A stretch of DNA of 33,109 bases, taken from contig JAZLIX010000017.1 in NCBI GenBank assembly GCA_045617605.1, forward strand, positions 1 to 33,109. The letters are read 5' to 3'. The stretch's first letter is position 1; each line of letters opens with the position of its first letter. Under the pieces are notes generated by a model, which ran no database searches, was not told the DNA's origin, and was given only the letters and a program-made list of their open reading frames with translations. The translations under genes were made by a program, and so were the position numbers. Source of the stretch: Alphaproteobacteria bacterium. GTDB taxonomy: Bacteria > Pseudomonadota > Alphaproteobacteria > CAAHEQ01 > UBA3637. Shown piece after piece: positions 3,534-31,949 of the stretch.

Positions 3534-3542
3534 GGAGATAAC

Positions 3543-5739: not shown

Positions 5740-5756
5740 CTGAGCAGGTATTATCA

Positions 5757-7709: not shown

Positions 7710-7720
7710 AGGAGGGATAA

Positions 7721-8827
7721 ATGGCAACAAAAGAACAGGGAAGTTTTTTAGATACGCTTAATATAGGTTATGCCCATGCAATGGTCAGATTACATGCTGA
7801 AGACCGTTTGGAAATGTATCGTAAGTTAGCTGCTCTTTTAAAAAACCGCTTTTCTTTGATGGATGCCTTGGAACGACTTTATCAAATTGCCAGTAAAGAT
7901 GGAAAGAATAAGGAAGATTCAATGGCTTTGGCAATTACCAGTTGGATGACTCAAATACGAAATGGTAGTACCTTTTCAGAAGCTTTGCGTGGATGGGCAC
8001 CCAGTACTGAATTATTGCTGTTGTCTGTTGGTGATGTTTCAAATTTGGAAACAGCCTTACAGCATACCGTACGTGTGGTGGAGGGGATGAACAAAATGCG
8101 TGAGTTGGTCTGGGGCGCTGTGGCTTATCCTTTGTTCTTGTTGTCAATGGTTTCCTTGCTTATTTGGGCAGTTGCTAAGTTCATGGTGCCACCGATGAAA
8201 GAGGCTGTTCCTAATTTACAGTGGAAAGGAATAGCTGCCACTTTGGTGAATATGTCAGTTTTTGTGGATCAGCATCCTATTTTTTTGTTTTCAATATTAC
8301 CAGTGATAGTGGTTATAGTCTTACTTACGTTCCCTTATTGGAAAGGGGCGGGGCGTGCTACGGCTGACAAGATGCCACCATGGTCTATCTATCGGACATT
8401 TATCGGAGTCAGCTGGTTGTTGGCATTATCGGCTTTGGTACGGGCGGGGATGCCTGTGTCACGTGCTGTACGTGCTTTGATGGGAAATGAGGCGAGCCCT
8501 TATTTAAAATATCGATTGAATAGAACGCTACTTTACATCAATAACGGGGATAACTTGGGGGAAGCCCTTTATCATACCCATTTAGGTTTTCCAGATGAAG
8601 AAGTGGTTGGGGATTTGCGGATTTATGCTGAATTGGATACCTTCCAGGAGGCTTTGGAAAACCTGGCAAACGGGTGGTTGGAATCTTCTATTCGGGATAT
8701 TGATAAAAAAGCTGCCATCTTGAATGGGTTCGCCATTTTAATGATTGCTGGTGTCATTGGTTGGGTTGTTTGGGGTACCTTTGAAATGCAAAACCAAATG
8801 GTCAGTGGAATGGGTTTAGGCGGTTAA
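7721..8827 (+). CDS. pilR: Type IVb pilus inner-membrane platform protein (GspF/PilC family; PilR in R64 nomenclature)
   Basis: 368 aa. RBS aggaggg before ATG at 7721. Two cytoplasmic helical repeats and three hydrophobic segments, as in GspF-like proteins. Immediately follows the ATPase gene. Confidence 0.8.
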   Translation: MATKEQGSFLDTLNIGYAHAMVRLHAEDRLEMYRKLAALLKNRFSLMDALERLYQIASKDGKNKEDSMALAITSWMTQIRNGSTFSEALRGWAPSTELLLLSVGDVSNLETALQHTVRVVEGMNKMRELVWGAVAYPLFLLSMVSLLIWAVAKFMVPPMKEAVPNLQWKGIAATLVNMSVFVDQHPIFLFSILPVIVVIVLLTFPYWKGAGRATADKMPPWSIYRTFIGVSWLLALSALVRAGMPVSRAVRALMGNEASPYLKYRLNRTLLYINNGDNLGEALYHTHLGFPDEEVVGDLRIYAELDTFQEALENLANGWLESSIRDIDKKAAILNGFAILMIAGVIGWVVWGTFEMQNQMVSGMGLGG

Positions 8828-9007: not shown

Positions 9008-9316
9008 CTATTTTAAAATCAGGTTAAGTAAGGCAATTGAAATAGCTGTGACAGTGGTTAAGGCGATTGTTCCCATTAATGAACGAAGGGGGGCAATTTC
9101 ACGTCGCAGTACAAATTCCTGGCGCAGTTGATTATGAATCTCTTGGCAAGTTTTTTTGTTTTGCACAGAGCCCATAAAATTCAAGAGTTCTGTATGAACA
9201 GAGGTAATTTGGGTTGATAAATCGGCAACTTGGCATTTAATTTCTGCCAGTTGCTTTTGTTGTGAATCGGCCAAGGCCATCAGGCGACCGATTTCCAGTG
9301 AAAAACTTTTTGGCAT
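9008..9316 (-). CDS. Coiled-coil protein with a C-terminal transmembrane anchor (lysis cassette member; spanin- or holin-like function unproven)
   Basis: 102 aa. RBS gaaagga. Heptad-like N-terminal region and the C-terminal TM TIALTTVTAISIALLNLIL. Lies 10 nt downstream of the endolysin gene. Confidence 0.45.
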   Translation of the reverse strand: MPKSFSLEIGRLMALADSQQKQLAEIKCQVADLSTQITSVHTELLNFMGSVQNKKTCQEIHNQLRQEFVLRREIAPLRSLMGTIALTTVTAISIALLNLILK

Positions 9317-9325
9317 TTTTTCCTT

Positions 9326-9733
9326 TCAGTTCACGGTATAGAACAAATGATTACCAATATGGGCTGATGGAATTACCCCGCGTGCCCAATAGGGATTGAC
9401 TTGAAGGGCGTGATAATGGGTTGCCCCACAGGTATTATCGGTCAGGTTTCCATGCAGAGCCCTTAAAGCAACTCGTTTACAAATTTGATAAACAGGGTCA
9501 TCTGATAAATCTTGTTGTAACAGTTTGAAGTTGGGGTCTGTTGGGTTCCAACAAGAAAATTGTTGAGGTTTTAAACAAATTTCAATGATTGTTTTTCCCC
9601 ACCACGTCCGTTGTTGGTGTAAAGCCATTTTATGACGGTTTAAAATCACATTAGCAACGGCCTCAATTCCAGACAAAGATTCCCCCCTGGCTTCGCCATA
9701 AAGGGTCTTGGCAAAAATTTCTAATTCATCCAT
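9326..9733 (-). CDS. Cell-wall hydrolase of the SleB/CwlJ (Hydrolase_2) family, putative endolysin
   Basis: LYGEARGES...IEAVANVILNR...QQFSCWN...ATHYHA...IGNHLFY matches the conserved blocks of this family. Confidence 0.85.
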   Translation of the reverse strand: MDELEIFAKTLYGEARGESLSGIEAVANVILNRHKMALHQQRTWWGKTIIEICLKPQQFSCWNPTDPNFKLLQQDLSDDPVYQICKRVALRALHGNLTDNTCGATHYHALQVNPYWARGVIPSAHIGNHLFYTVN

Positions 9734-9751
9734 TTTGTTATCCTTTCATTT

Positions 9752-11143
9752 TTAGGAACGCCATAAGGGGCGATTTCGGTTAAAACTGATGATTCGTGGT
9801 AGGCGGACTGGTTCTGATAACAGGCATCCTGCCACCGCATCCAATCCATCATCATGGGTTCGACCTGAGGCATTAAAGTCCTGCATTTCACTGACAAAAG
9901 GGGTGCTCATAACTGATGAATGGACATAAAGTGATCCGTTCATTAAGGGGGCTTCTAAAGCCCCTAAAATGCGTTCGGATTTATTTTGATGTGATGTTTT
10001 TTCTAGAATAGCGCATCCCATACGGCGACGGGAAAATTCTTGTCTTAAAAGGGCTGGCAAGAATCGTCCAATGCCATTTGTTTCCAGATGAACGGCAGGC
10101 AAATAATTATCCCACACAAAGTCGGCAACTTGTCGGCATTGCCAACTGGTTGATTCTTCTGCTTCAGGAACTTGCAGATATTTCATGGCGTGCAGGTAAT
10201 AGTTGCCGTCCTCGCCTGTAAAAACGCAAGCAATCACGCTGGCATCTCCGCCCGCTTTTCCAAAGGCGGGATCCCACCAACAACTGGCTGACATCATTTT
10301 TATATCTCCGATTTTCAGCAAGCCATATCCATTGGCTTCCCTATATAAAAGAGGAGTGTCATACATTTTAAGGCGTTTACTATCCAAGCGACTCTCATCA
10401 AATTTGACCGCTTGCAATAACATTTGGCTGGCAAATTTATTGGGGGTCGTAGAACGCCTGATTTCTTCAATTTTTTGTAATGAAAAGCGTTCAGGCCAAA
10501 CAGAGTCTCCCTTTAAATTCAACAAGGGGAGTTTCAGCCAATGCCAGCCTTCTTTTTTTTGATAAATGGTGTCTTCAGCATGGGGTGTCCCGATATACAA
10601 CATCATTCCACCAGGGGTTAGAATGTAGTCCAACTCTGCCAATTTTGTGCGCAGGTCCTTGCGCTTTAAGGCATTATTGCAAGTCTTGGGAACTTCCACG
10701 TCATCACATAAAATGATGTCTGCCCGACAGCCTGTCATATTGGCGGATAGTCCCCGAGCCAGCATAGAAGGGTCTCGTCCGACTTGAGTGCGTTTGATGG
10801 TAAAACGATCACTAGCCCATTCTTCTGCTTTATGGGGCTTCATTCCAAAACAAGCCGGATGATGCTCAATAATATGCTTGGTGTGGGCAACCATTTTTTT
10901 GGCCAGCGTATGATCGGCGGAAACCACCAACAACCTGAGATTCGGTTTTTGTAATAAGACCCAAGCACAAAATAACCCCACTAATGTTGATTTTCCGGAA
11001 TTACGGAAAGCCAAAAGCAGACCTTTTCGACCATTGGAACAGTTAAATAAATCTTCCAAAAATTGTCCAATGACTTTATGGTGGCGAGGTAATTTTAGAC
11101 CATTTACCTTATCCCAAATCCAAAGAAATTCCAGAAAAGTCAT
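9752..11143 (-). CDS. terL: Phage terminase large subunit
   Basis: 463 aa. N-terminal LPRHHKVIGQFLEDL block, Walker A-like FRNSGKST, Walker B-like ILCDDVE, and a C-terminal nuclease-like region with acidic residues (WWDPAFG, HDDGLDAVA). Confidence 0.85.
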   Translation of the reverse strand: MTFLEFLWIWDKVNGLKLPRHHKVIGQFLEDLFNCSNGRKGLLLAFRNSGKSTLVGLFCAWVLLQKPNLRLLVVSADHTLAKKMVAHTKHIIEHHPACFGMKPHKAEEWASDRFTIKRTQVGRDPSMLARGLSANMTGCRADIILCDDVEVPKTCNNALKRKDLRTKLAELDYILTPGGMMLYIGTPHAEDTIYQKKEGWHWLKLPLLNLKGDSVWPERFSLQKIEEIRRSTTPNKFASQMLLQAVKFDESRLDSKRLKMYDTPLLYREANGYGLLKIGDIKMMSASCWWDPAFGKAGGDASVIACVFTGEDGNYYLHAMKYLQVPEAEESTSWQCRQVADFVWDNYLPAVHLETNGIGRFLPALLRQEFSRRRMGCAILEKTSHQNKSERILGALEAPLMNGSLYVHSSVMSTPFVSEMQDFNASGRTHDDGLDAVAGCLLSEPVRLPRIISFNRNRPLWRS

Positions 11144-11390
11144 CGGTATTTAGTTCCTTTTTTGCTTGATCTAATAAAGTGCTGATATCAGGAATAACCG
11201 GTTCCAGTGTGGGTTCTTTTTGTGTCAGCTTCACTAATAAGGCCACGTGCAAAAGGGCGGCTTTACAAGCAGTGTGATAGGCATTAAATTCTTTTGTTTC
11301 ACTGGGAGCTGGTTCATTTGAAAAAGCTAAATAATCGGACAAGGCTTTTTGTAAGGCGGGGACAAGTTCCTTTCCTACTTCAAAACTCAT
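11109..11390 (-). CDS. Small protein immediately upstream of terL (positional candidate for the small terminase subunit)
   Basis: 93 aa. ATGA start/stop overlap with the upstream gene, and the 3' end overlaps the terL start by 35 nt. The position is analogous to T7 gp18. No recognisable motif. Confidence 0.4.
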   Translation of the reverse strand: MSFEVGKELVPALQKALSDYLAFSNEPAPSETKEFNAYHTACKAALLHVALLVKLTQKEPTLEPVIPDISTLLDQAKKELNTDDFSGISLDLG

Positions 11391-11863
11391 TTAATCATGG
11401 TCCGACTGAAACTGGTACTGATATTACCTAAAGTATTTAAGGAACTGAGTTTACTTTCAGAACTTAAACTATTCAGGCGCAATAAGTTAGTACTATTGGT
11501 ATTTCCCAAACTATTTAACAACGCCTCAGAAGAAATTTTGGCTTGATTTTGCAGGTATTTATCCTCAATATCATGTTCTCTTTGCAGGGCGTTTAAATAA
11601 GTTTGACCGGTTCCTGATTTACTGCTGGTTCCCAAAGCCCCTAAAGAAGCCTTATAGGCGGCCTGTTGTTGAAGCAGTAAATTTCTTTTTTTTCTTTGTT
11701 GTTCAGCCAAAGCTAACTTGGCTTGTTCATCTTGCAGTCTGGTATTTTCAGCCGCCGTCCGATTGGCATTTTTAATGGTTTTCTTTTGACGGTCAGAATT
11801 GACTTTTGTATAATATGCACTTGCCAAAGCACTGGCAATAGTGACAACGATAGCAGCTTCCAT
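11387..11863 (-). CDS. Small virion-associated or internal protein (N-terminal TM plus Q/K/L/S-rich coiled coil)
   Basis: 158 aa. Starts 2 nt after the nozzle gene stop. N-terminal hydrophobic MEAAIVVTIASALASAYY, then low-complexity helical sequence. Sits where T7-like phages place their internal virion proteins. Confidence 0.45.
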   Translation of the reverse strand: MEAAIVVTIASALASAYYTKVNSDRQKKTIKNANRTAAENTRLQDEQAKLALAEQQRKKRNLLLQQQAAYKASLGALGTSSKSGTGQTYLNALQREHDIEDKYLQNQAKISSEALLNSLGNTNSTNLLRLNSLSSESKLSSLNTLGNISTSFSRTMIK

Positions 11864-11864
11864 T

Positions 11865-13790
11865 TTATCCTCCTATTTTAATATCGCTGACAACGGATAC
11901 AAGTTTAAAGGTGGCGGGTAAAGTTCCCTTGATTTCCCATAAAGCGTTTTGGGGATTTCTGTGCCATCCTAATCCTCTGATGACTAAATCCAGTGTGTGT
12001 TTTTGTGGGATACTGTCCATTTGGTAATTTGCCAAATTTGGTACCAATTCTTGATGGAGTCCAGATCCTGTATCAATTTCAACACTTTGGGTATCTACAA
12101 CACGAAAAACGCCCCGAATAAATCTGGCATTGGTAACAGGAGCAGGTCCATTATTTGCTCCAGTAATTGGGGGCAGAGGGGCAATCAGATGTGTGAAGGC
12201 TAATCCTACTTCTACTGCAGAGGCGGGTGTTAAAAGGGTTAAAGTTCCATTTTCAATTATTTGTGGGTCTTGAACTCGTCCATCAGCGACAATTTGAACT
12301 TGTTGTCTTTCCAATACAGTAAGCCCTGTCCATATGTCTGTGGCTGGAGTGGCACTCAATAAGAATCCTCTATCAGTATGCAGGTCTTCATTAAATTTTT
12401 CTAGATAATAGGTGTTATCCTCTTTAATAATAAAGTAAGCATTTCCACCGCAAACGGTCACGTTTTGAAAAGCACCTTGTGTGGTTTGATGTGTCCAGCT
12501 CTGCATATCTTCAGCACGAAAACTGGTGAGGACAGATAAACTCCCATCTTGCATCACGACATAGGCTTGACGTAAGTATTTATCGTACGCCATATCCACA
12601 GGTTTATCAATTAAATGATGGGCTAGTAAGGAAAGGTCGGTTGCTTGATAGACACCTTCTAAATCCGAAAATAAAAATTCCCGAATTTCTTTCCCATTGG
12701 CGGCTGCAAAAATGGTGGCTCCATCTATTCCGACAGGGGGAATAAAGTGTGTATCATCTGACCCTACTTGCGTTTGGCGTTTTAACTGAATGGAGGTCGG
12801 CGTTAAAGGATCACCTGTCACCATCCATTCGGCACTGGTGGTAAAAACTTGTAAATGACGTCCAGCAAATAAAGCACAAATTTTATTGGCTTGGTCTGAC
12901 ATCAATGAAAAAGTAATGGCTTCACTGTCCAGCGCTGTTCCTTCTTCAAAGTTTGAAATGTCTTCAGTTTGACTGAACCACAAGGTGTTTGGTAAATCTT
13001 TAGACCCACCGAATACCAATCTGGATTGATAAGTTGTCACAGTTGTCGGCCACCCATGTTCGCTGCATAGGGCTGGTTCTCCCCAATAGCGTGTGGGATT
13101 TAAAGGGGTCGAATCAGCAATATCGTTCTCTTCCATCAGCTTTTTTAAAACAGTTGCGGTGGCAGTTGTAGTATTACTGACGCCGGTAATTCTGACATAG
13201 CCATCGGCTAGTTTAAATTGCTTACCAATGTGGGTATTGGTGAATACATTGGCACTGGCGGTTAAGGTCACGTTTCCGCCACATCCTGATGAAGCTATTG
13301 TTACATTGTCTGCTACAAAACGAGCATAGGGTTGGTGGATATAATTGTTGGCATTTAAAAAGTCAAAATTATTCCCAGTCCAAGTGTTATTTTTGAAAGT
13401 GAATTGATAAGGTTGAACATCAGCGTGAACGACAATCAGTCCGTCGGACAAAGCGCACCAACAAAGTTTATCTAATTGTGCCGTTGTCCAAGGGGTTGTC
13501 AGGGTTGCCTGTAAAACTTCATTTTTGTAAATTTGCGTTTCTTCATTTAAAATCAAAAATAAATAGGTGTTTTGGCTATCCTGCTCATAACTGATGAGGC
13601 GTGCTTTTCCGTTCAAGGTTTGTAAGTATTGAAGACCCGGGCGACGATGAATACCCCCAGTGGGTTCAATAAAAACATTTTCCAACTTTAAGGCGCCGTT
13701 GGCATAAGCATTTAAATCGGCTCGTCCCAACAGATCAGGGGACAATTCCCCTGCGGTAAAGTTGGTTTTAGTGGTAAATAAGTTTGTCAT
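11865..13790 (-). CDS. Podovirus tail tubular protein B / nozzle-like protein
   Basis: 641 aa. The N-terminal FTAGELSPDLLGRADLNAYANGALKLENVFIEPTGGIHRRPG is the block I associate with nozzle proteins of podoviruses. ATGA overlap with the upstream adaptor gene. Confidence 0.65.
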   Translation of the reverse strand: MTNLFTTKTNFTAGELSPDLLGRADLNAYANGALKLENVFIEPTGGIHRRPGLQYLQTLNGKARLISYEQDSQNTYLFLILNEETQIYKNEVLQATLTTPWTTAQLDKLCWCALSDGLIVVHADVQPYQFTFKNNTWTGNNFDFLNANNYIHQPYARFVADNVTIASSGCGGNVTLTASANVFTNTHIGKQFKLADGYVRITGVSNTTTATATVLKKLMEENDIADSTPLNPTRYWGEPALCSEHGWPTTVTTYQSRLVFGGSKDLPNTLWFSQTEDISNFEEGTALDSEAITFSLMSDQANKICALFAGRHLQVFTTSAEWMVTGDPLTPTSIQLKRQTQVGSDDTHFIPPVGIDGATIFAAANGKEIREFLFSDLEGVYQATDLSLLAHHLIDKPVDMAYDKYLRQAYVVMQDGSLSVLTSFRAEDMQSWTHQTTQGAFQNVTVCGGNAYFIIKEDNTYYLEKFNEDLHTDRGFLLSATPATDIWTGLTVLERQQVQIVADGRVQDPQIIENGTLTLLTPASAVEVGLAFTHLIAPLPPITGANNGPAPVTNARFIRGVFRVVDTQSVEIDTGSGLHQELVPNLANYQMDSIPQKHTLDLVIRGLGWHRNPQNALWEIKGTLPATFKLVSVVSDIKIGG

Positions 13791-14356
13791 CCACGTACCT
13801 CAATCAATGAAAAATCTTGAAAAGTTGAATTGACATTTTGCTGTGAATCAACCAGACGAGCTGTCGAAATACTTGTTTCTGACATTTTTTTGACATACTC
13901 CGTACGGGTGGTGCTTTCGGTTAAGGGCAGACAGAATTCAGTGGCTAATTTTCCAACCAAGGCTTCTACAAAAAAGGCAGGGAAAGTGTTTTCTTCGGGG
14001 CGACGAATATAATTTAAAACAACCTTATCGGCATTAGTGTACAGTTTTTGTCCCACGATTTTATAATTCAGTCCTGAGCTTTTCACATTTTGTCCGGCAG
14101 ACAAAACACGCACACAATCATTGGGGAGTTGGTATGCATATTGATAATCTGACACGGGGTTTTCAGTTAAACGGGCTAGTGTTTTTTGGGTTAAGGCAAA
14201 GCGCCATGGATAAGAGGCCAATAAGTTTTGTAGCGTTGGCTCATACAGTTGGTTGGCGACTTCGGCTTCGGCAGTTTCTTCTTCAAAGGAAGTGATGCTT
14301 TTCGCACCAATTTTAATCAAGGCTTTGGAACAAAGCGTAATGGCAGTATCACTCAT
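13787..14356 (-). CDS. Podovirus head-tail adaptor / tail tubular protein A-like
   Basis: 189 aa. The LCSKALIKIGAKSITSFEE...YPWRFAL...YQYAYQLPNDCVRVL pattern is typical of this adaptor family. First gene after the capsid terminator. Confidence 0.6.
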   Translation of the reverse strand: MSDTAITLCSKALIKIGAKSITSFEEETAEAEVANQLYEPTLQNLLASYPWRFALTQKTLARLTENPVSDYQYAYQLPNDCVRVLSAGQNVKSSGLNYKIVGQKLYTNADKVVLNYIRRPEENTFPAFFVEALVGKLATEFCLPLTESTTRTEYVKKMSETSISTARLVDSQQNVNSTFQDFSLIEVRG

Positions 14357-14376
14357 TTTAAATCCTTTCTTAAATC

Positions 14377-14404
14377 AAAAAAAACCGACCTCGTGTGAGG
14401 TCGG
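14377..14404 (-). terminator. Rho-independent terminator directly downstream of the major capsid gene
   Basis: On the minus strand, CCGACCTC-acac-GAGGTCGG (8-bp GC-rich stem at 14385-14392 / 14397-14404) is followed by eight T (plus-strand A run 14377-14384). Confidence 0.8.
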
Positions 14405-14421
14405 CAAGGGGTGCAATTTTT

Positions 14422-15273
14422 TTATTCAGCGACTGGAACAATATCCAAACATTCCATTTTGACAACACCGTTGTCATCAATTAAACAAGCTCCTTGGCTC
14501 ATCATATTGTTGACATAATGGGCGGCATAATCACCATGCCATGTAATGTCTGTGGTAATGTCTTGACCGGCGGCGAGTCCAATGGCGGACTTGTGGTAAA
14601 TAAAGCAAGTCGTTGTGGCAGAACTGTCAGATCCGGAAGTTGGTAAGCCTGTATGCATAATCCAGTTGATGCCCATCCATTTACGGGATTCAGAACCAGA
14701 TAACAAGGGGTGTTCATCGCCCACATAGTTGGCGTTGGAAAATTCTTCCAAACTTAAAAGTTGGTTCCATTGAGCAGGTCCCACCAAAGCATAGCGTTCG
14801 CCATCATCAGGAACATCATTTGTGTTGAGTGTTTTGAAGGCCGTCAAAATACGTTCTTTGGTCAAAGCTTCTGAAGAAGTTCCGGCAGTTTGTGTACCAT
14901 CACTTAAGGCTGTGATGATCAAATCATCTGTTTTGCGACCCAAGGCATAAGCACCGGCGGTAGCCAAGACTTTACGTTCATCATGGCCGACTTTTAATTC
15001 GTCCAATTTATCTACCCATTGTCCGGCGTACCAGTCGGCCAATGTACATTCCACAGGGGCGTGTGTGACAGCGGCCGGTGTTAATTGGGCATTGCGGGCA
15101 GATTTTTGGTTGGCTGTTTGTGTTCCAATCACTTGGAAAGTTGTACTGGCACCGTTCACGTTATCTTTAAAACGAACAGTGGAACGCAATTTTGAACCTT
15201 GTTGCTGATAGGCGGTATGCACATCGGCTTCAAAGTGTTTAATAAAGGCAGCATCAATAGCTGTTGAGGTCAT
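14422..15273 (-). CDS. Major capsid protein (probable HK97 fold)
   Basis: 283 aa. Follows the scaffold gene and is followed by a strong terminator. The N-terminal FIKHFEADVHTAYQQQGSKLRSTVR...GRKTDDLIITAL pattern recalls phage capsid families. RBS aggagaaaaaaa. Confidence 0.7.
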   Translation of the reverse strand: MTSTAIDAAFIKHFEADVHTAYQQQGSKLRSTVRFKDNVNGASTTFQVIGTQTANQKSARNAQLTPAAVTHAPVECTLADWYAGQWVDKLDELKVGHDERKVLATAGAYALGRKTDDLIITALSDGTQTAGTSSEALTKERILTAFKTLNTNDVPDDGERYALVGPAQWNQLLSLEEFSNANYVGDEHPLLSGSESRKWMGINWIMHTGLPTSGSDSSATTTCFIYHKSAIGLAAGQDITTDITWHGDYAAHYVNNMMSQGACLIDDNGVVKMECLDIVPVAE

Positions 15274-15400
15274 TTTTTTCTCCTATAAAAGTTTTTAAGT
15301 TTATAAACAAATCCTTTTAATGGGTTGTGAAGAAAATTCTTCGCCGATTATCAAGGGCATTTTTGCGGGACCCATAGAGTTTATCCGCTGGTTCAAAGGG

Positions 15401-16051
15401 TTAGCCGTACAAACGGCGGAAGCCCCTTTCAACACGCTGAACCAATTCAGGATCTTGTTCTTTCCAATATTTTGGATCCTGCATCAGTCGGCGTAAAGTG
15501 ATTTCATCATCTTTGGTATTCAGCTGGCTTTTGCCGGCAATGACAGGCGATTCTTGCTTTTCCTGCATCATTCGGTAAAGCGTCATAATGCCATCTTTAG
15601 ATGTGGCTAAAGTATTAAAGGTGTTTGTGTCTAAATTCTTTTCTCCCCATTGGGATAGTTGACGGGCGATTTCATTAAAGCGTTCTGCTCCGCCAAATTC
15701 TTTTTCCAATTCCTGCAGTTCTTTATCGGCGGATAATTGTTCTGTCATCGATTGGATTTGTGGAATTAAAATTTCTGCAGCAATATCATACACGCCTTGC
15801 ACTTGTTCATTGGTGAGTCCCAGTTGAAATAAACGTTCGTTGATTACTTTATCAATGACTAACAAAGGATTTTTAAGGGTAATTTTGTATCCTTCGGCAT
15901 TGGTGGGAATTCCTTCTTTTGGGGCGCCCAGTTTCTTTTCCAAAGCGACATACGATTTGGCTAAATCATTCACATTGACATTTCCTTCTTTGTCCAAGAA
16001 TTTTTCTGGGACAACAGGGGTTTCATTTTCTTCTTTTAATAAATTGGTCAT
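15401..16051 (-). CDS. Capsid scaffolding protein
   Basis: 216 aa, acidic and helical. N-terminal PEKFLDKEGNVNVNDLAKSYVALEKKLG motif. Lies between the portal and capsid genes. Confidence 0.6.
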   Translation of the reverse strand: MTNLLKEENETPVVPEKFLDKEGNVNVNDLAKSYVALEKKLGAPKEGIPTNAEGYKITLKNPLLVIDKVINERLFQLGLTNEQVQGVYDIAAEILIPQIQSMTEQLSADKELQELEKEFGGAERFNEIARQLSQWGEKNLDTNTFNTLATSKDGIMTLYRMMQEKQESPVIAGKSQLNTKDDEITLRRLMQDPKYWKEQDPELVQRVERGFRRLYG

Positions 16052-16060
16052 TCTGACTCC

Positions 16061-16258
16061 TTATTCTTTTTTTCCTTGTTCAATCAAATTATCCAGGTAG
16101 GCTATCATGGCGCGCTGACCTTCCAAATACCACAACTCGTTTGTGGAAGCATCGGGGGCCAGTGTGCGATTTAATGTGCGGGATTTCAGGTGTTCTAACA
16201 TCTTTTTCCCGTCTGCTGTATTTGACAGCCGCACCATCACGTGTTGAATTTCTTTCAT
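16061..16258 (-). CDS. Small conserved phage protein between portal and scaffold
   Basis: 65 aa from ATG at 16258, which forms an ATGA overlap with the portal stop; the track's longer 95-aa version runs inside the portal gene. From memory, NTADGKKMLEHL...LWYLEGQRAMIAYL resembles small proteins at this position in BPP-1-like podoviruses. Confidence 0.5.
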   Translation of the reverse strand: MKEIQHVMVRLSNTADGKKMLEHLKSRTLNRTLAPDASTNELWYLEGQRAMIAYLDNLIEQGKKE

Positions 16259-17742
16259 ACACTTTCCTTTAGCGGAATTGAGGGCGTTTGAGTATTTACT
16301 TTTTCCAGCATAAAGTTGCTTGGTAATCCCAATTTTTCGGCCATCCACTTCATAATTTCAGGCACGTTTAAGGTAGTGCTGGCCTCTTGTCCTAAACTGG
16401 CGACAGAAGTCAACCACTGCAAAGCATTTTGGGCATCTTTACGGTTTTGTGTTTCAGCTCTGGGGGATTTATAGCTGACATTTAACAATCTGCCATCAAT
16501 AAAGATTTCTGGAATTTCTCCCCGTTTACGGAGCAGTGCTGTTGCCCGTTCAATGAGTGGCATCAACAACTCTGATTGCAATCGTCCATAAGTGGCGCCT
16601 AGTATTCGAATCATTTCATCAGAACGCTCTAAAACTTCTGTGGCGGTCATCTTCATATCATCACACACAGTGCCTAGTTTATCGCCCAGCAAGGCGTGGC
16701 GAATGTGTTCACGTAAGTCTTTAATCACCAGTTGTGATACATCAAACTTGCCGGGGGCTTCCAATGGGGTCAGTCCTTTAGAGCCGACAGCTTTTGGAAT
16801 AATCGCACCCGGGGTCAGATGAATGTTGGCAGGATTTAAAATGCCATCATCTTCGGCTAACCAGATACCTGTCACGGCGATTGTGGCGTTTTTTAAAATC
16901 AATTCCACAACCTTGTTGGCGGTCTTAATATCTGGCAGAGCTTTCATGACAGGGGAACGGCCGTAAACTTCCCCCGGGGCTTTCAGCCAGCGGAACGCAA
17001 TAAATGGGCTGGTGGTGTAAACAGCTTCTTTCAGGACGAAAGGGAAATCCTGATTTTTTGCGGCGAGATGCTGGCAATTGGGATCCATAAAGGCAACCGA
17101 GCGATATCCGCCATTTTGTTGGGGTAAAATCGCTTCAATCACCTGAATGGGTGTTTCATCGTCTTTATCTTGTTTTAAATATCGGCTACCAAATCGGTCT
17201 TCAAATTCTGAACGCGTCAGTGAAAAACAGCGAAAGACCTTATCTAATTTTCCTGTGGGACCTTCGCTTAAACAGAGCTCACTTAAAGGAATAGCAGTAA
17301 AGCGGAAAGCAGATGTTGCGCCAATGGGGGCTTCTTCAAACAACAGGCACGCTGTTCCTGCGGTAATTAAATCCAAATAGCATTGATGAATTTCAGTTGC
17401 AAAGTTAGATCGATCAAAATGATTTTGTAAAGTGGCTGAGATTTTTTCCAAAGTCGGTGCGCATGATTCTTTTTCACCAGTGGAAAGTTCTGTCCCTGTA
17501 CTTAAACTAAACCAGCGCATCCATGGGGGCGTCAGTTCTGATAACATCAAGGCAGCCAGTTGGTCGGTAGCATCTGGAGCTGTTGCATCAAACAGGGTAC
17601 TGATTTTACTGCTACTACTTGAAAAAACTGTTTCACGTTGAGGCAGAGCATAGGCGTAACATTCTTGCCATGTGCTTTCCCAGTTGGCACGCACAGCTAA
17701 TGCTTTTTGATAGTCACGATAAAGAGATTGAATATCTGTCAT
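16255..17742 (-). CDS. Podovirus-type portal (head-to-tail connector, T7 gp8-like family)
   Basis: RBS ggagaa, then ATG at 17742; the track uses TTG at 17745. RANWESTWQECYAYALPQRE and LFDATAPDATDQLAALMLSELTPPWMRWFSL match the conserved N-terminal blocks of this connector family. Confidence 0.85.
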   Translation of the reverse strand: MTDIQSLYRDYQKALAVRANWESTWQECYAYALPQRETVFSSSSSKISTLFDATAPDATDQLAALMLSELTPPWMRWFSLSTGTELSTGEKESCAPTLEKISATLQNHFDRSNFATEIHQCYLDLITAGTACLLFEEAPIGATSAFRFTAIPLSELCLSEGPTGKLDKVFRCFSLTRSEFEDRFGSRYLKQDKDDETPIQVIEAILPQQNGGYRSVAFMDPNCQHLAAKNQDFPFVLKEAVYTTSPFIAFRWLKAPGEVYGRSPVMKALPDIKTANKVVELILKNATIAVTGIWLAEDDGILNPANIHLTPGAIIPKAVGSKGLTPLEAPGKFDVSQLVIKDLREHIRHALLGDKLGTVCDDMKMTATEVLERSDEMIRILGATYGRLQSELLMPLIERATALLRKRGEIPEIFIDGRLLNVSYKSPRAETQNRKDAQNALQWLTSVASLGQEASTTLNVPEIMKWMAEKLGLPSNFMLEKVNTQTPSIPLKESV

Positions 17743-17781
17743 CAAAATTCTCCTAAAGGGTTGAACAAAAAAACAACCTAG

Positions 17782-17820
17782 AATAGAAAAAAGAGTCTTC
17801 TCAAAATGAAAAGACTCTTT
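17782..17820 (-). terminator. Rho-independent terminator between the two early genes and the portal gene
   Basis: Perfect 9-bp inverted repeat AAGAGTCTT (17791-17799) / AAGACTCTT (17811-17819) with an 11-nt loop. On the minus strand the hairpin runs into a run of six U followed by CUAUU. Confidence 0.7.
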
Positions 17821-17875
17821 GGATACAGTTCTAGGTTTTAACTGAAATGGATTATATCACAAAAATTTTAAAATG

Positions 17876-18274
17876 TCAAGGATTATTTTCCTTTTTTGAC
17901 AAAATAAATTGAAAAAGTTGGTATGGTGTCCATATTTTTGGACTGGAAATTCCCAAAAAACGTTTGACAGTTTCGACACAGGTCAAAGGACGAAAATAAC
18001 CTTTTTCGGTTAAGTTTAGATAAGGTGTTGTTCGTAGCAACCGATATCCTTTTTCTTTAATCAGGAATAAAAGAGCTCTGTTTCGGACAAAAATTAAATC
18101 GGTGTAATTCCAAACGGGATCAATTAAAATCCAATCAAAACCATTCCCCATAATCAAGAAACAATGATAAAATCCTTTTTTTAAAAATTTTGTCCACCAA
18201 TGAGTTGGATTTCCACCAAAAGCGACATAGGCAAATGGAAAACGATAAGATGCAAGTGTCGGATTTAAAATCAT
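17876..18274 (-). CDS. Hypothetical protein, second early gene of the particle cluster
   Basis: 132 aa, W/F/Y-rich, with conserved-looking HCFLIM and TCVETVKRFLGI blocks suggesting a small enzyme fold. No family recognised. Confidence 0.5.
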   Translation of the reverse strand: MILNPTLASYRFPFAYVAFGGNPTHWWTKFLKKGFYHCFLIMGNGFDWILIDPVWNYTDLIFVRNRALLFLIKEKGYRLLRTTPYLNLTEKGYFRPLTCVETVKRFLGISSPKIWTPYQLFQFILSKKENNP

Positions 18275-18289
18275 ATAAAACTCCTTATA

Positions 18290-18646
18290 TTATAGACAAT
18301 AAACAATTCCTTTTTTGCGTAAAAGGGATTCTAAAAATGAAAGAGCCTCTTTCCAAAGTTGGCAAATTTTTAGACTATCGCCAAAATGTGGATGTGGTGG
18401 AACTTGTTCAAATCCATACTTGGTTAGTACTTTTAAATGAACGGGTTTTAAGGTGCCTTCTCTTAATAGTCTTTTGACAACAATGGCAATATCGGATGAT
18501 TCACAAGGGCGAATCGTTTTGGCTTCATATCCGTGAGTTCTTTCATTTTTTAAACTTTCACATAAACAGTACCAAAACCACGCTTCCTCTGTTGAATCAA
18601 AAGGTGTTGCTTTACGTGTGTCTGATGATAGGTAAATATTCCTCAT
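18290..18646 (-). CDS. Hypothetical small protein, first gene downstream of the SOS-box promoter (candidate regulator)
   Basis: 118 aa. RBS gaggag before ATG at 18646. The EEAWFWYCLCESL...RPCESSDIAIVVKRLLREGTLKPVHLKVLTKYG pattern hints at a helical DNA-binding region. Function inferred from position only. Confidence 0.5.
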   Translation of the reverse strand: MRNIYLSSDTRKATPFDSTEEAWFWYCLCESLKNERTHGYEAKTIRPCESSDIAIVVKRLLREGTLKPVHLKVLTKYGFEQVPPHPHFGDSLKICQLWKEALSFLESLLRKKGIVYCL

Positions 18647-18674
18647 TTAATCTCCTCTGATTTGTTTTAAAAAA

Positions 18675-18689
18675 GAACAAAACAAGAAC
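18675..18689. promoter_or_regulatory. Alphaproteobacterial-type SOS (LexA) box GAAC-N7-GAAC
   Basis: GAACAAAACAAGAAC is the exact reverse complement of the 15-mer in the recA leader (28710-28724). It overlaps the putative -10 of the leftward promoter. Confidence 0.7.
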
Positions 18690-18714
18690 TAACACACTTT
18701 TTTAGGAAAGTCAA
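18686..18714 (-). promoter_or_regulatory. Putative sigma70 promoter of the particle cluster (leftward)
   Basis: Minus strand: TTGACT (18714-18709), 17-nt spacer, TAGTTC (18691-18686). The -10 is weak and embedded in the SOS box. Confidence 0.4.
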
Positions 18715-18738
18715 TACCAAAATAAGAAAAAAATCCTA

Positions 18739-18767
18739 TTGACATTTTTAAAAAAGTATGTTAATCA
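18739..18767 (+). promoter_or_regulatory. Putative promoter of the HTH-S24 repressor gene (rightward, back-to-back with the leftward promoter)
   Basis: TTGACA (18739-18744), 17 nt, TAATCA (18762-18767). Confidence 0.4.
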
Positions 18768-18808
18768 TTTATACAACTAAAAAGGGTTTTAAAAAGAAAG
18801 GAAATGAT

Positions 18809-19444
18809 ATGCAACTTTCATATAATGAAATTTGGTTGGGATTGGAAAATTTGGCAGCAGCAAAAGGACTTTCTCTTTCCGCAATGGCACAAAAAGCGGG
18901 TTTGGATCCAACCAGTTTTAATAAATCAAAACGAATCGGGGCTGATGGTCGTAAACGATGGCCTTCCACCGAAAGTATGAATAAAGTTTTAAAGGCGACC
19001 AATACGACAGTCTTTGAGTTTATGGAATTGGCAGGTGAGCCTTGTCCTCAACCAAAAAATGTGATTCCTTTGTTGGGATTAGCCAAAGCGGGGCGTGAAG
19101 GTTATTTTGATTCGGATGGTTGGCCGATTTTGACGGATGATTGGGATGCTGTGGAATTTCCTTTTACACTGGATAAAAAAGTGTATGCTTTGGAAGTTTC
19201 CGGCAATAGTATGGAGCCTGTTTATCGGGATGGAGATAAGTTGATTGTGGCCCCCGATTTGGAAATTCGTAAGGGGGATCGTGTAATCACAAAAACAACA
19301 GGGGGGGAAGTGATGGTGAAGGAATTTCAGCGTCGTTCTTTGAATCAGGTGGAATTGAAGTCTTTGAATCCTGCTTGTCCAGATGTGGTGTTAGCCCCTT
19401 CTGATGTCGCTTGGATGGTTCGTGTGATTTGGGTCAGCCAATAA
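18809..19444 (+). CDS. HTH (XRE-like) plus S24 peptidase repressor (CI/LexA-like, self-cleaving type)
   Basis: ATG at 18809 with RBS aagga. N-terminal HTH LSLSAMAQKAGLDPTSFNKSKR, then RWPSTES. C-terminal S24 motifs GNSMEP (catalytic Ser) and a downstream Lys (EVMVKEF). Not the canonical winged-helix LexA N-terminus. Confidence 0.85.
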   Translation: MQLSYNEIWLGLENLAAAKGLSLSAMAQKAGLDPTSFNKSKRIGADGRKRWPSTESMNKVLKATNTTVFEFMELAGEPCPQPKNVIPLLGLAKAGREGYFDSDGWPILTDDWDAVEFPFTLDKKVYALEVSGNSMEPVYRDGDKLIVAPDLEIRKGDRVITKTTGGEVMVKEFQRRSLNQVELKSLNPACPDVVLAPSDVAWMVRVIWVSQ

Positions 19445-27662: not shown

Positions 27663-28697
27663 TTATTCGGCTTCTGTTGGGGCATCATTATCCCCCACAA
27701 TCATATCGCGTGAAATATCCTTGGCATGGTCACGAATTGCTTTTTCCAGCTCTTCTGTTACCTTTGGATTGTCTTTCAGGTATTGACGAGCGGATTCACG
27801 ACCTTGTCCGATTCGGGTGTCTTTATAGGAAAACCAAGAACCAGCCTTTTCCACTAAACCGGCCTTAACTCCTAAATCCAATAATTCGCCCATTTTAGAA
27901 ATGCCTTCGCCATACAGAATATCAAAATCAACAGTCTTAAATGGAGGAGCAACCTTATTCTTCACAATCTTAACACGGGTCTGATTTCCGATGACATCTT
28001 CGTGGTCTTTAATGGAACCAATGCGACGAATATCCATACGAACAGAGGCATAGAACTTTAACGCATTTCCGCCTGTTGTTGTTTCAGGGTTGCCAAACAT
28101 GACCCCGATTTTCATACGAATTTGGTTAATGAAGATAACCAAAGTGTTTGTTCTGGCAACTGAGGCTGTCAATTTCCGCAAAGCTTGACTCATTAATCTG
28201 GCTTGCAATCCCATATGTTGATCGCCCATATCGCCTTCCAGTTCGGCTTTGGGAACCAAGGCAGCCACCGAGTCCACTACCAATACACTGATTGTCCCAG
28301 AACGCACCAAAGTATCAGCAATCTCTAACGCCTGTTCCCCAGTATCTGGTTGGGAAATCAACAGGTCATCAATTTTAACCCCTAACTTGCGGGCATAAAT
28401 GGGGTCCAAAGCGTGTTCTGCATCCACATAGGCGCAGTTACCACCTTGTTTTTGGGCTTCAGCCACCACGTGTAAAGCCAAGGTTGTTTTTCCTGAACTT
28501 TCTGGTCCGTAAACTTCAATGATACGTCCTTTAGGTAATCCCCCAATTCCAAGAGCTAAATCTAATCCCAGCGATCCAGTTGAAATGGCAGGCATATCCA
28601 CGGCATTTTCCTGTTGACCTAAGCGCATAATTGACCCTTTTCCAAAGGCGCGTTCAATCTGTGCCACAGCGGCTTCTAAAGCTTTATCTTTTTCCAT
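27663..28697 (-). CDS. recA: Recombinase RecA
   Basis: Walker [10 protein letters not shown], plus [18 protein letters not shown] and [14 protein letters not shown]. Confidence 0.98.
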
Positions 28698-28709
28698 TTT
28701 TTCTCCTTT

Positions 28710-28724
28710 GTTCTTGTTTTGTTC
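28710..28724. promoter_or_regulatory. SOS (LexA) box GTTC-N7-GTTC in the recA leader
   Basis: GTTCTTGTTTTGTTC lies between the putative recA -10 (28737-28732) and the RBS. This is the direct-repeat architecture described for alphaproteobacterial LexA. Confidence 0.75.
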
Positions 28725-28731
28725 TTTTTGA

Positions 28732-28760
28732 ATTTTAATTTAATTTTTTATAGATTGCAA
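28732..28760 (-). promoter_or_regulatory. Putative recA promoter
   Basis: Minus strand: TTGCAA (28760-28755), 17 nt, TAAAAT (28737-28732). Confidence 0.5.
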
Positions 28761-29738: not shown

Positions 29739-31310
29739 ATGGATTTAAGGGAGATTATTTCTTTTTGGAAAAGTTTAGAGCCTTTAATTTTTGAGGCCTA
29801 TCGTGTCTTGGGTAAAGAGGTTACTATGGGGATGCCTGGGCCTTGTATGCCTGCTATCAGTGAATCGGAAAACGTTGGCATAGGCTCGCCTTATGGCAAA
29901 GGGGCAGAGCGTATTTGGGGATTTTTTGGGACAGCTTTGCATAAAATTCAATTAGGTCCTGGTGGACGAACCAATAAAATTACAGGGCATTCTCCTTATA
30001 TGTCAGAAATGGCGGATAATCCTTTTTTTATTCCCCCTGAAAGTTTGGTTAGATTGGGGTTGGTCAAAGCAGAAACTTTGGAAAAAATTTATGCCACACC
30101 TAAAAAAGCGGATTTTATCAACTTTGAACAGGTGGAGGAAGATTTTAATACACTTTTAAGTGAAGCACATCAAACGAAAAAGGCTCGTCTTCCTCTTCCT
30201 GTATTTAGTGCACGTTTGGCCGAGACTTATGCAGAACATTGTTTATTTCCCTATATTGGGGATTTGCAGGTTTTGATTCCGGCAGAAATTCAAAAAAAAT
30301 ATCCGAATTTATTTTTAAAGGAGATGGCACTAGGGGCGCCCCCAGATGCTTTTTCGGATAAACCCCAACTATGGGGATTTCCTGTTTTTAATCCAGATTT
30401 TTTGTTTAATAAAGATGGGTCTTTGGGACAAGCGGGTTTGATTTGGCAACAGATTTTGGAAACAGCCTTACGGCGGGCAAAAGGGGGATTACGTATTGAC
30501 CATTTTATTGCCTTTATTGATCCGTATTTATTGTCAGATAATCCCAAAATAAAACCAGGGCGGTTATATTCTTCGCCTCGTCATCCAATTTTGAAAAAGT
30601 ATCGCAAGAAAAAGTTGGCTGAATTTGGAGAAATTACAGAAAGAATTTTATTGCCGGCTGCCCGAAAATATGGGATTCGTCCAGAAGAATTGTATTTGGA
30701 AGATATTGGTATTCGTCCACCGCAGATGGATAAGGTATTAGATAAATTTGGTCTGAATCGGATGGTGGTAACTCAGTTTGTGGATATTAATGATGAAAAT
30801 CATATTTATCATTTAATGCAGACTCGTCCTCAAGATGTGGCAGCATTGGATACACACGATTTACCTTCTATTCAAGAATTTTTTGATAAAATGGATGATG
30901 CTCATCGTTATGCACATGCCAGTCATATGGCAAAAAGTTTAAGATTTGTTTATAACGACTCCTTAAAATCCACCGAACAATTAGTGCGTATGAAGTGGGC
31001 AGAATTGATGCTGTGTCCAGCCAAACGAGTGCAAGCCTTTTTTACCAGTTGGACAGGTCAATCGGGACGTTATAATATCCCTGGCACATTGAATGCTTGG
31101 CATTTAAGATGTGTGCCGAATTTTGAAGAACTTTATTTTAAGAATTTGGCTTTAGGGCGTGCCTATAATCCACTGGATGCGACAGCTTTGGCGATTTTTG
31201 CCAAAGGGGATGATTTTTACGATGCCCATCGTACGTTGGTGGATAAACTTCGCCAATCAGAAGAAATCTTGATGAATAAAATTCAATCATCTATTATTTT
31301 GTTTTGTTAG
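29739..31310 (+). CDS. malQ: Divergent GH77-like 4-alpha-glucanotransferase (amylomaltase)
   Basis: GIGSPYGKG near the N-terminus, WGFPVFNPDF, LRIDHFIAF (nucleophile Asp), LEDIGIRPP (acid/base Glu) and LDTHDLPS (third catalytic Asp), in the order expected for GH77. Confidence 0.7.
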   Translation: MDLREIISFWKSLEPLIFEAYRVLGKEVTMGMPGPCMPAISESENVGIGSPYGKGAERIWGFFGTALHKIQLGPGGRTNKITGHSPYMSEMADNPFFIPPESLVRLGLVKAETLEKIYATPKKADFINFEQVEEDFNTLLSEAHQTKKARLPLPVFSARLAETYAEHCLFPYIGDLQVLIPAEIQKKYPNLFLKEMALGAPPDAFSDKPQLWGFPVFNPDFLFNKDGSLGQAGLIWQQILETALRRAKGGLRIDHFIAFIDPYLLSDNPKIKPGRLYSSPRHPILKKYRKKKLAEFGEITERILLPAARKYGIRPEELYLEDIGIRPPQMDKVLDKFGLNRMVVTQFVDINDENHIYHLMQTRPQDVAALDTHDLPSIQEFFDKMDDAHRYAHASHMAKSLRFVYNDSLKSTEQLVRMKWAELMLCPAKRVQAFFTSWTGQSGRYNIPGTLNAWHLRCVPNFEELYFKNLALGRAYNPLDATALAIFAKGDDFYDAHRTLVDKLRQSEEILMNKIQSSIILFC

Positions 31311-31949
31311 AATCCATGACGTTTGAAGGTAATCATCTATCGTTTGGGTTTCCATTTTGGTTTCCATTTTGGTTTTCATTTGGGCTTTTACTTGCCCCAC
31401 CTTTGTCTTTGCTTTATTGTCTTCTGACGTTTGGGTTTCCATTTGGGTTTTCATTTGGGCTTTTACTTGCCTCACCTTTGTCTTTGCTTTATTGTCTTCT
31501 GATTCATTCCAAGAAATAACTTTTTGGTTCGAAGTTATAGTACAAGCTTCACCATCAACCTTTTTCTCAGTCCAAATTATACCAGTTTTATCTGCTTTAA
31601 AAGTAGTTTTAATAGGCATCAAGGCATGGCTATCAACTCGAATGTTTCCCCCCGCTGCATTAATCGCATTCACCAATTCTTTTGGTGCCTCATAATCTGT
31701 TGACCAATCTATTGGCCCATTTTTTGATAAAACGAGATTTTGAATACTTTTTAAGATATTATTTTTTTCATATTCTGGGATTTTTTTATATAAACCCTGT
31801 ACCGTGTTAGCACTTATTAAACACACAGAGAAAGGGGGCCCACTGTTAAAAAGTTCCACCAATGTTACATCGCCCTGGTTTCCTGTATTGATAATCTCAA
31901 TTACTTTTTTGGCAATTTGGTCCGCTTGTTGTTCTGTAAAGTATGACAT
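31287..31949 (-). CDS. Hypothetical protein with a C-terminal K/Q/T/M-rich tandem repeat
   Basis: Strong RBS aggagg before ATG at 31949. 220 aa. The C-terminal SEDNKAKTKV(R/G)QVKAQMKT(Q/K)METQT is repeated. The 3' end overlaps the malQ-like stop by 24 nt. Confidence 0.65.
   Translation of the reverse strand: MSYFTEQQADQIAKKVIEIINTGNQGDVTLVELFNSGPPFSVCLISANTVQGLYKKIPEYEKNNILKSIQNLVLSKNGPIDWSTDYEAPKELVNAINAAGGNIRVDSHALMPIKTTFKADKTGIIWTEKKVDGEACTITSNQKVISWNESEDNKAKTKVRQVKAQMKTQMETQTSEDNKAKTKVGQVKAQMKTKMETKMETQTIDDYLQTSWILTKQNNR
31342..31503. repeat. Imperfect in-frame tandem duplication (87 nt plus 75 nt) inside the 220-aa gene
   Basis: Copy A (31342-31428) and copy B (31429-31503) share gtttgggtttccatt(t)tgg...ttttcatttgggcttttacttgcc(c/t)cacctttgtctttgctttattgtcttctga. 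Copy A carries one extra 12-nt ttccattttggt-type subunit. Confidence 0.85.

Follow-up and report, generated by a model that had tools for sequence, protein, structure and literature searches.

We analysed a stretch of 33,109 nucleotides (nt) from an alphaproteobacterial assembly (GCA_045617605.1, contig JAZLIX010000017.1, positions 1 to 33,109), here called the window. The window is chromosomal DNA with about 40% G+C. It carries a phage-derived particle cluster, a divergently transcribed gene for an S24-type repressor, and recA. The same short direct repeat, a putative SOS box, lies in the recA leader and at the promoter of two small genes, p118 and p132, which precede the structural genes of the cluster. 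The lineage may derive from animal-gut or rumen metagenomes, to judge from the accession series and sample names. The features at and around the two boxes are as follows.

17876-18274, minus strand: p132, 132 amino acids (aa), phage-derived; its stop codon lies inside the -35 element of the late promoter
18290-18646, minus strand: p118, 118 aa, the first early gene
18675-18689, minus strand: putative LexA-type SOS box of the cluster, GTTCTTGTTTTGTTC on the early-gene strand, overlapping the last 4 nt of the early -10 hexamer and the predicted start
18686-18714, minus strand: early promoter (P_early), -35 TTGACT (18709-18714), 17-nt spacer, TGn, -10 TAGTTC (18686-18691)
18721-18740, no strand: putative S24 operator, an imperfect palindrome AATAAG-N8-CCTATT overlapping the -35 (18739-18744) of the S24 promoter
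18809-19444, plus strand: gene of a 211-aa CI-like repressor with a Cro/C1-type helix-turn-helix (HTH) and an S24 autopeptidase
27663-28697, minus strand: recA (TIGR02012, 571 bits)
28710-28724, plus strand: putative SOS box of the recA leader, the same 15-mer in reverse orientation to the cluster copy

Two identical boxes at recA and at the early promoter

The plus-strand sequence GAACAAAACAAGAAC at 18675-18689 is the exact reverse complement of the site at 28710-28724, which reads GTTCTTGTTTTGTTC on the plus strand. An earlier note on this DNA had reported an identical 15-nt box at these two places. Its coordinates were exact, and the identity is even longer, extending over 20 nt (18670-18689 as the reverse complement of 28710-28729). 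Both sites match the direct repeat GTTC-N7-GTTC exactly.

The chance expectation was obtained from first-order Markov simulations of the 33-kb window. Exact 15-mer pairs arose at a mean of 3.7 per simulation, and a 20-mer pair was found in 0 of 60. GTTC-N7-GTTC occurs three times in the window against 0.94 expected, and three or more copies were seen in 9 of 100 shuffles, which is not significant alone. The third copy, at 3772-3786, is within an ORF. Because the repeated 15-mer and the motif count are unremarkable by themselves, significance was sought in relatives. The 16-mer AGAACAAAACAAGAAC had at least 120 scattered matches in a viral contig collection, and a near-box, GTTGTTTTTTTGTTC at 17763-17777, showed no conservation in other loci. 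A second exact 15-mer, TCCTTTGTTCTTGTT, is common to 8128-8142 (inside a T2SSF-like ORF) and 28704-28718 (the region of the recA ribosome-binding site and box). It has no second GTTC and looks like a chance match.

The comparison set comprised 326.5 kb of DNA from relatives rather than whole genomes; its loci are numbered with the prefix L. Of the 29 exact boxes in it, the orthologous early promoter accounted for 17 and recA for 4; the remaining 8 compare with 8.8 predicted by composition. The earlier note had allowed that the 15-mer might be common in the genome and not enriched at promoters. Within these 326.5 kb the opposite was found, with 21 of the 29 boxes at the two promoter classes. 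The stray boxes examined (window 3772, L219 and, in dksA, L226) all lie in coding sequence, and we dismissed them as SOS sites and regard them as chance occurrences there. The upstream region of ssb in L006 has no box. On the sequences compared, this comparison with relatives, and not the 15-mer match itself, is the decisive evidence for the box.

The unit of p118, p132 and structural genes adjoins S24 homologues (57-94% identical) in many assemblies, with differing chromosomal flanks, and a concatenated query of p118 and p132 returned 15 homologues. GAAC-N7-GAAC is present 123-164 nt upstream of the S24 ATG in all cluster loci but one lineage (L007, L008, L223). Conservation of the box in orthologous loci, a check that the earlier note had proposed, was thus found in every cluster-bearing lineage except this one. 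On the p118 strand, nearly all orthologous loci, representing about a dozen distinct sequences, share the pattern TTGAC(A/T)-17-TA[GTTC-N7-GTTC], and p118 is the first gene after the box in every locus. The leftward TTGACT promoter with a box on its -10 TAGTTC, as the earlier note had read it, is therefore present in an arrangement conserved across orthologous loci. Its description of the rightward promoter of the HTH-S24 gene was likewise confirmed in the sequence, and this promoter is conserved too: TTGACA (18739-18744) and TAATCA (18762-18767) are separated by 17 nt, TGn is present, and there is no GTTC-N7-GTTC box.

The position of the box relative to the -10 hexamer varies. Most loci have TAGTTC as the hexamer, with the first half-site making up its 3' end. 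A TATGTT hexamer is seen in L005, L215 and L217, where the box starts from the fourth base. In two further loci, L009 and L221, the box is displaced to 7-8 nt downstream of the hexamer. Both half-sites are intact in these displaced boxes, so GTTC is not kept merely as part of the -10. The spacers seen were TTGTTTT, TTATTTT, TCGTTTT, CTGTTTT and CTATTTT, with ATTCATT in L226, the most distant locus. Across the 17 orthologous loci the GTTC half-sites are invariant and 11 nt apart. Since the spacers vary and the two GTTC never do, the conserved unit is the direct repeat in an 11-nt register, not the 15-mer.

In the lineage that lacks the GAAC box (L007:9793-10000 and L223), the early promoter reads TTGACT-TAATGGGAAAATAATCC-TATACA, with an S24-type operator in the place of the LexA-type box. 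Its S24 promoter has repeated TTTTCCTATT units. In L009 (7534-9045; 59% S24 identity) the S24 gene and the box are retained, together with p118 and p132 homologues. The structural cluster and the late promoter are absent beside this regulator module, and a histidine kinase and mutS come next.

The recA box precedes the ATG by 13 nt; it is just upstream of the ribosome-binding site and 7 nt downstream of the predicted -10 TAAAAT (28732-28737; -35 TTGCAA, 28755-28760). The same 15-mer stands between the predicted -10 and the ribosome-binding site in L090 (RecA 90% identical) and L091 (86%). In L092/L093 (83%; 9960-10000) the box is shifted by one half-site to GAACGAAAGAGGAAC, so that the former second half-site is now the first. 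In this leader the old first half-site has decayed to TATT, and a new GAAC is found 11 nt downstream of the old second one, overlapping the ribosome-binding site. Counted by lineage, the recA box lies 4-19 nt past the predicted -10 in four lineages, each in a different genomic context. No exact-sequence match for the RecA or the S24 protein of the window is on record.

GTTC-N7-GTTC LexA operators also occur in Rhodobacter and Rhizobium. Like alphaproteobacterial LexA operators in general, the boxes described here are direct repeats with a 7-nt spacer, and the recA box is positioned at the -10 or shortly after it. The first GAAC is followed by an A, a feature shared with many of the alphaproteobacterial recA boxes of this work. 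They differ from a typical operator of this type in the unusually conserved T-rich spacer (TTGTTTT) and in the short distance of the recA box to the ATG, only 13 nt. A control set was taken from 78 other Alphaproteobacteria (RecA 71-78% identical, among the matches listed), and 38 of the 78 carry an exact GTTC-N7-GTTC within 300 nt upstream of recA. The alphaproteobacterial LexA architecture claimed in the earlier note is borne out by these controls and by agreement with the published Caulobacter LexA box, GTTCN7GTTC (PMC9578287, Table 1).

The box would then be a genuine alphaproteobacterial LexA-type SOS operator, with motif and parsimony pointing to LexA as the binder. Its function is most likely damage-induced derepression.

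Late promoter, terminator and particle operon

Next to p118 and p132 on the same strand are three further features.

17851-17892, minus strand: late promoter (P_late), TTGACA (17874-17879), 17 nt, TGnTATAAT (-10 at 17851-17856), 12/12 consensus plus TG
17780-17820, minus strand: intrinsic terminator between P_late and the portal gene, a 14-bp stem (17790-17820) and a T-run
9008-17745, minus strand: structural and lysis operon, T7/HTVC010P-like by Pfam and PHROG matches

P_late is located between p132 and the portal gene. An S24-type operator, AGGAAAATAATCC plus the T that follows it (17879-17892), lies on its -35, with AGG-N8-CCT ending in the first T of TTGACA. P_late with this operator is conserved in 13 of 15 loci, and the palindrome is perfect, AGGAAAATTTTCCT, in L003, L004 and L215. 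In L226, related operator elements are found on the P_late -35 and in the spacer. The terminator lies about 25 nt past the predicted P_late start. A strong hairpin with a U-run was present in all seven loci folded (z = -2.7 to -4.7). The stem sequences are unrelated between loci, so the structure is conserved and the sequence is not. No Rfam family was found in the window, the late leader included.

The particle operon thus has a promoter of its own, probably repressed by the S24 protein, and a terminator that would have to be overcome. The earlier note had stated that the promoter with the box drives both the 118-aa gene and the particle operon. This holds for the 118-aa gene, and also for the 132-aa gene, but not for the operon, which has its own conserved P_late and terminator. 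The prediction that particle production is derepressed directly, in the same way as recA, is not supported either, since the structural genes stand behind a separate promoter with an S24-type operator and a terminator. Because this promoter and terminator precede the portal gene, LexA control of the structural genes would be at most indirect, via p118 and p132.

The operon encodes a portal protein (PF12236), a Bbp19-like protein, a scaffold, a capsid protein (PF19821), tail tubular proteins A and B/nozzle (phrog_394 and phrog_376), a gp14-like protein, a 93-aa protein, a large terminase (phrog_38), a cell-wall hydrolase (PF07486) and a 102-aa protein. The particle cluster has neither genes for replication, integrase, tail fibres or large internal-core proteins nor a recognisable small terminase. 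Analogues of gp15 and gp16, the large internal core proteins, are present in a related Vibrio phage and missing from the cluster. Unless these missing genes lie at another site, DNA injection by the particle could not follow the usual route. The nearest phages are Vibrio podophages of about 32 kb and HTVC010P-type pelagiphages. The cluster is not of the type found in the Rhodobacter capsulatus gene transfer agent (RcGTA), whose production the earlier note had mentioned as linked to LexA; its genes are of podovirus type. Gene order is the same in L001-L008 and L215-L226, within varying chromosomal contexts, and the ORFs are intact and syntenic at loci where the S24 proteins are 57-94% and the capsids 58-95% identical.

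For p118, no Pfam, PHROG, NCBIfam or PDB match was found. A p118 profile searched against PDB and Pfam gave nothing, and no homologue was found in phage genomes. Its AlphaFold2 model was poor (pLDDT 57) and unusable for a fold search. The protein has conserved cysteines (C27, C29, C48 and C95) and an invariant EAWxW motif, which suggest a small zinc-binding protein. A role as late-gene regulator or antiterminator candidate is speculative.

The model of p132 was better (pLDDT 85). Its fold search gave no PDB match at E<=0.001, with cysteine peptidases among the weak top matches, and neither a Q-like fold nor a Pfam Q family was found for it. Invariant residues are His37-Cys38, Asp52, Cys99 and Glu101. 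The structural and sequence homologues of p132 are uncharacterised phage proteins; those in Vibrio podophages are located between the large terminase and portal genes (L294:1954-2427). From this location, p132 is an ancestral morphogenesis-module gene that is now under the early promoter. We considered p132 as an antiterminator and dropped it, as its homologues lie inside the structural module of Vibrio podophages.

Type II secretion/type IV pilus-like genes (1929-8827) directly adjoin the end of the particle cluster. They include a T2SSF homologue, recognised by comparison with L003, where the same neighbour is found; the other ORFs appear secretin- or ATPase-like when read from their sequence. 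A 220-aa ORF (31287-31949, minus strand) contains long direct repeats at 31341-31490, with a 75-nt offset (31371-31405/31446-31480 and 31398-31427/31473-31502) and an 87-nt offset (31341/31428). They encode KAKTKVxQVKAQMKT(Q/K)METQ units. This set and the SOS box pair are the only repeats of at least 20 nt in the window.

The S24 repressor, its operator and the binder of the box

The 211-aa protein matched PF00717 with 79 bits and phrog_4 ("transcriptional repressor") with E=7e-25 over residues 16-210. Against TIGR00498 (lexA) it scored 39 bits, with a cutoff of 111, and only residues 86-201, the S24 part, were aligned. PF01726 is absent from the protein. The N-terminus gave a weak Cro/C1 HTH match (HTH_26, E=0.006), and the best PDB sequence match was the C-terminal domain of lambda CI. 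Among 29 S24 homologues, Ala94-Gly95 and Ser134 are invariant and Lys171 is nearly so. Judged by these matches, the protein is a CI-like S24 repressor and not LexA. No S24 relatives were found in the viral contig collection.

Of 79 S24-family loci, 63 carry AGG-N8-CCT upstream of the gene, whereas the background rate is 0.02 per 200 nt. The high-GC homologues share the consensus GAGGyAATAATTCCTAG for this element, which is placed about 58 nt before the S24 gene. These homologues (51-55% identical) have no p118 or p132, no cluster and no GAAC box. Because the element is kept even where cluster and box are absent, it can be assigned to the S24 family as its own operator. GAGGyAATAATTCCTAG is presumably the autoregulatory operator of a widespread alphaproteobacterial HTH-S24 family. 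The stand-alone S24 homologues come from high-GC metagenome contigs (L227-L293), and the copy in L242 is beside pyrD and DUF952. A weight matrix made from the high-GC sites failed on the AT-rich lineage because the operator spacer has diverged, and the sites there were sought by pattern.

At the S24 promoter of L009 the palindrome is perfect, AATAGG-N8-CCTATT. A good match to the S24-family operator, AGGTAAATATTCCT at 18630-18643, overlaps the first p118 codons (MRNIYL). About half the orthologous loci share this match, which may represent a third operator or may simply result from the coding sequence. A further conserved element, TACAACTAAAAAG (18772-18784), is at the predicted S24 transcript start and resembles the start of the late leader, which is likewise conserved, CAGTTAAAAsC (17833-17845). 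The -10-like TAAAA in both transcript starts is possibly a sigma-dependent pause or a common recognition element.

The two operator types are partitioned among the promoters. The recA sites are of the GAAC type only, and no AGG-N8-CCT was found in the recA upstream regions. The S24 promoter and P_late carry the AGG-N8-CCT type only. P_early has the GAAC type in most lineages and, in L007/L223, GGGAAAATAATCCTAT between -35 and -10. The S24 HTH region of L007/L223 is nearly identical to the others, the invariant FNKSKR motif included. These non-overlapping distributions are as expected for two proteins. AGG-N8-CCT is the presumed binding site of the S24 protein, and cleavage dependent on RecA would be expected of both LexA and the S24 protein. 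The earlier note had described a divergent phage-type switch region here. The back-to-back promoters stand, but the S24 gene is no bystander: its product is a predicted second damage sensor with its own palindromic operator.

The identity of the binder is the point on which another explanation would differ. If the lineage had no canonical LexA, the adjacent HTH-S24 protein could be the SOS repressor and bind GAAC-N7-GAAC at recA and at its own gene, as HdiR, UmuDAb and NG1427 are such repressors in other LexA-less bacteria. The box indeed lies within the divergent control region of the S24 gene, an arrangement that mimics the classic lexA-recA pair; the cleavage site and catalytic dyad are intact; the S24 gene is a highly conserved single-copy chromosomal gene and not a variable phage repressor; and lexA was in none of the sequences examined. 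The details of the sites speak otherwise. Lying 52 nt upstream of the S24 -35, the box would not serve autoregulation, and the family has a different palindrome in 63 of 79 loci, most of them without a GAAC box. That palindrome is missing upstream of recA, and L007/L223 lack the GAAC box with a nearly identical HTH region. Moreover, a Cro/C1-type HTH dimer is expected on an inverted rather than a direct repeat, and the direct repeat is the ancestral alphaproteobacterial LexA box. We therefore regard the S24 protein as quite an unlikely binder of the box. It is hardly credible that the shared sequence is an A/T-rich coincidence or a generic element near promoters with no dedicated binder. Such a reading would fit the random occurrence of exact 15-mer repeats (3.7 per simulation), the non-significant motif count of the window, and the fact that the first half-site belongs to the P_early -10 hexamer. 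It fits neither the 20-nt identity, seen in none of the 60 simulations, nor the strong enrichment at exactly two promoter classes in relatives. Across changing spacers the two half-sites stay fixed at 11-nt spacing, the box persists even where it has moved away from the -10 (L009, L221), and at recA it stands in the opposite orientation downstream of an unrelated -10. The comparative data have already largely refuted this explanation.

The site might also be a real LexA site in a cluster that is a decaying prophage remnant, in which case it would be left over from a temperate phage that relied on host LexA, with no particles and no present role. The missing tail fibres, large internal virion proteins, small terminase, replication genes and integrase agree with decay, as do L009, which keeps the regulator module alone, and the one lineage that lost the box. 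Yet all ORFs are intact and syntenic across diverged loci, and the promoters, both operators and the terminator are maintained as well. Such maintenance of ORFs and control elements indicates long-term purifying selection, not decay. The chromosomal contexts also vary without an integrase or att signatures. Decay is, in our judgement, improbable, and LexA control of recA and the early genes of a maintained cluster is the explanation we carry forward.

A proposed two-repressor circuit and its relation to known systems

The circuit that we propose has more layers than the one in the earlier note and is built on elements observed here: the identity of the two boxes, the conservation of their half-sites, the two operator types, the late promoter with its terminator, and the catalytic residues of the S24 protein. 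In the undamaged cell, host LexA would occupy the box just downstream of the recA -10 and the box on the -10 and +1 of P_early, the extended -10 promoter that transcribes p118 and p132. The S24 repressor would hold P_late through the operator on its -35 and would also sit on its own -35. The intrinsic terminator before the portal gene would be a second check on the late operon. Upon damage, RecA would be activated and LexA would cleave itself, so that recA, p118 and p132 would be expressed. The S24 repressor would also undergo self-cleavage, freeing its own promoter as well as P_late. Passage of the polymerase through the terminator, or some other licensing of late transcription, would then depend on an early product, for which p118, rich in Cys, is the most plausible candidate, and the head, tail, terminase and lysis genes would be expressed.

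As a whole, this scheme (LexA on recA and P_early, S24 on P_late, the terminator, and damage-triggered release of both repressors) seems probable to us. Antitermination by p118 and the actual formation of particles are speculative parts of it. A bolder version is tentative, and we would not expect all of it to hold: the clusters would be a so far undescribed family of podovirus-derived gene transfer agents (GTAs) or killer particles in uncultured Alphaproteobacteria, in which two RecA-sensitive repressors must fall simultaneously, the Cys4 protein p118 is the antiterminator or licenses late transcription, and one sub-lineage has swapped its operator.

Several points weigh against the scheme. 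Neither the window nor about 300 kb from relatives yielded a LexA-like ORF in a tblastn search with E. coli LexA. The AGG-N8-CCT at the S24 promoter of the window is degenerate in its left half (AAG). The -10 hexamers TAGTTC and TAATCA are weak and have no usual final T, so the transcription starts are predictions. Conservation of the box may partly be phylogenetic inertia, though the flanks and the spacer have diverged. For the antiterminator step, p132 has no Q-like fold and the p118 model is too poor. Finally, a cluster without tail fibres and large internal core proteins might yield no functional particles unless these genes are elsewhere.

Host LexA control of phage-derived genes has precedents. 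The tum gene of coliphage 186, PrstA of CTXphi (with RstR) and colicins are controlled by LexA. As in 186, CTXphi and GIL01, a box for host LexA here lies on a phage-derived promoter beside a resident repressor, and SOS would trigger the element. Unlike in those phages, the resident repressor itself looks RecA-cleavable, which would give two parallel damage sensors; p118 and p132 resemble no known antirepressor; and the element is a non-replicative structural cluster. For the Bacillus phage GIL01, a host LexA box is described on the phage promoter P1, with gp7 (PMC4551915).

The cluster can also be compared with pyocins and with lambda late control, both close to it in layout. The tail-only pyocins of Pseudomonas aeruginosa are regulated by PrtR, an autocleavable HTH-S24 protein that represses prtN, and have no LexA box. 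The present cluster is likewise a domesticated chromosomal particle and lysis cluster with an S24 repressor beside small regulatory genes, but here the structural promoter carries the S24-type operator, and it is the small genes that have the LexA-type box. Lambdoid phages express their late genes from a constitutive PR', followed by the terminator tR' and under control of the antiterminator Q. P_late resembles PR'-tR' in being a near-consensus promoter with a strong terminator within about 60 nt and small genes directly upstream. In the Caulobacter GTA, antitermination is required and involves GafYZ (PMC11150451). In contrast to both systems, no Q-, GafY- or GafZ-like protein was recognised in our analysis, and P_late carries a repressor-type operator, which PR' does not.

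RcGTA is a further comparison. Its production requires LexA, which acts indirectly via CckA/cckA (PMC9638019, citing Kuchinski 2016). The parallel drawn in the earlier note is a loose one. It holds for the link, predicted in the present case, between the SOS regulator and a domesticated phage particle in an alphaproteobacterium. It does not extend to the mode of action: in RcGTA, LexA acts through CckA and not through a box on the cluster, while the box described here lies directly on the early promoter and predicts derepression, and the particle genes are of podovirus rather than HK97/siphovirus type. As in a GTA, head, tail and lysis genes form a chromosomal cluster without replication or integration genes that is conserved among related species. 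We found no description of a T7-like or podovirus-derived GTA in the literature searched.

To our knowledge, all known GTAs are of the long-tailed type, with either an indirect or an unclear connection to DNA damage. LexA boxes on phage-derived promoters and S24 repressors that control domesticated particles are already known. The podovirus-type carrier cluster, the two damage-sensitive repressors on successive tiers and the apparent operator swap in one sub-lineage appear to be new.

The compact T7-like cluster of head, stub-tail and lysis genes is intact across many species of an uncultured alphaproteobacterial lineage, and nearly every base of its control region can be interpreted. The work also defines an operator for a widespread, uncharacterised alphaproteobacterial HTH-S24 family. 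If confirmed, the system would add a new source of domesticated phage particles and provide a natural two-key (AND-type) damage switch, with operator swapping between repressors that sense the same signal.

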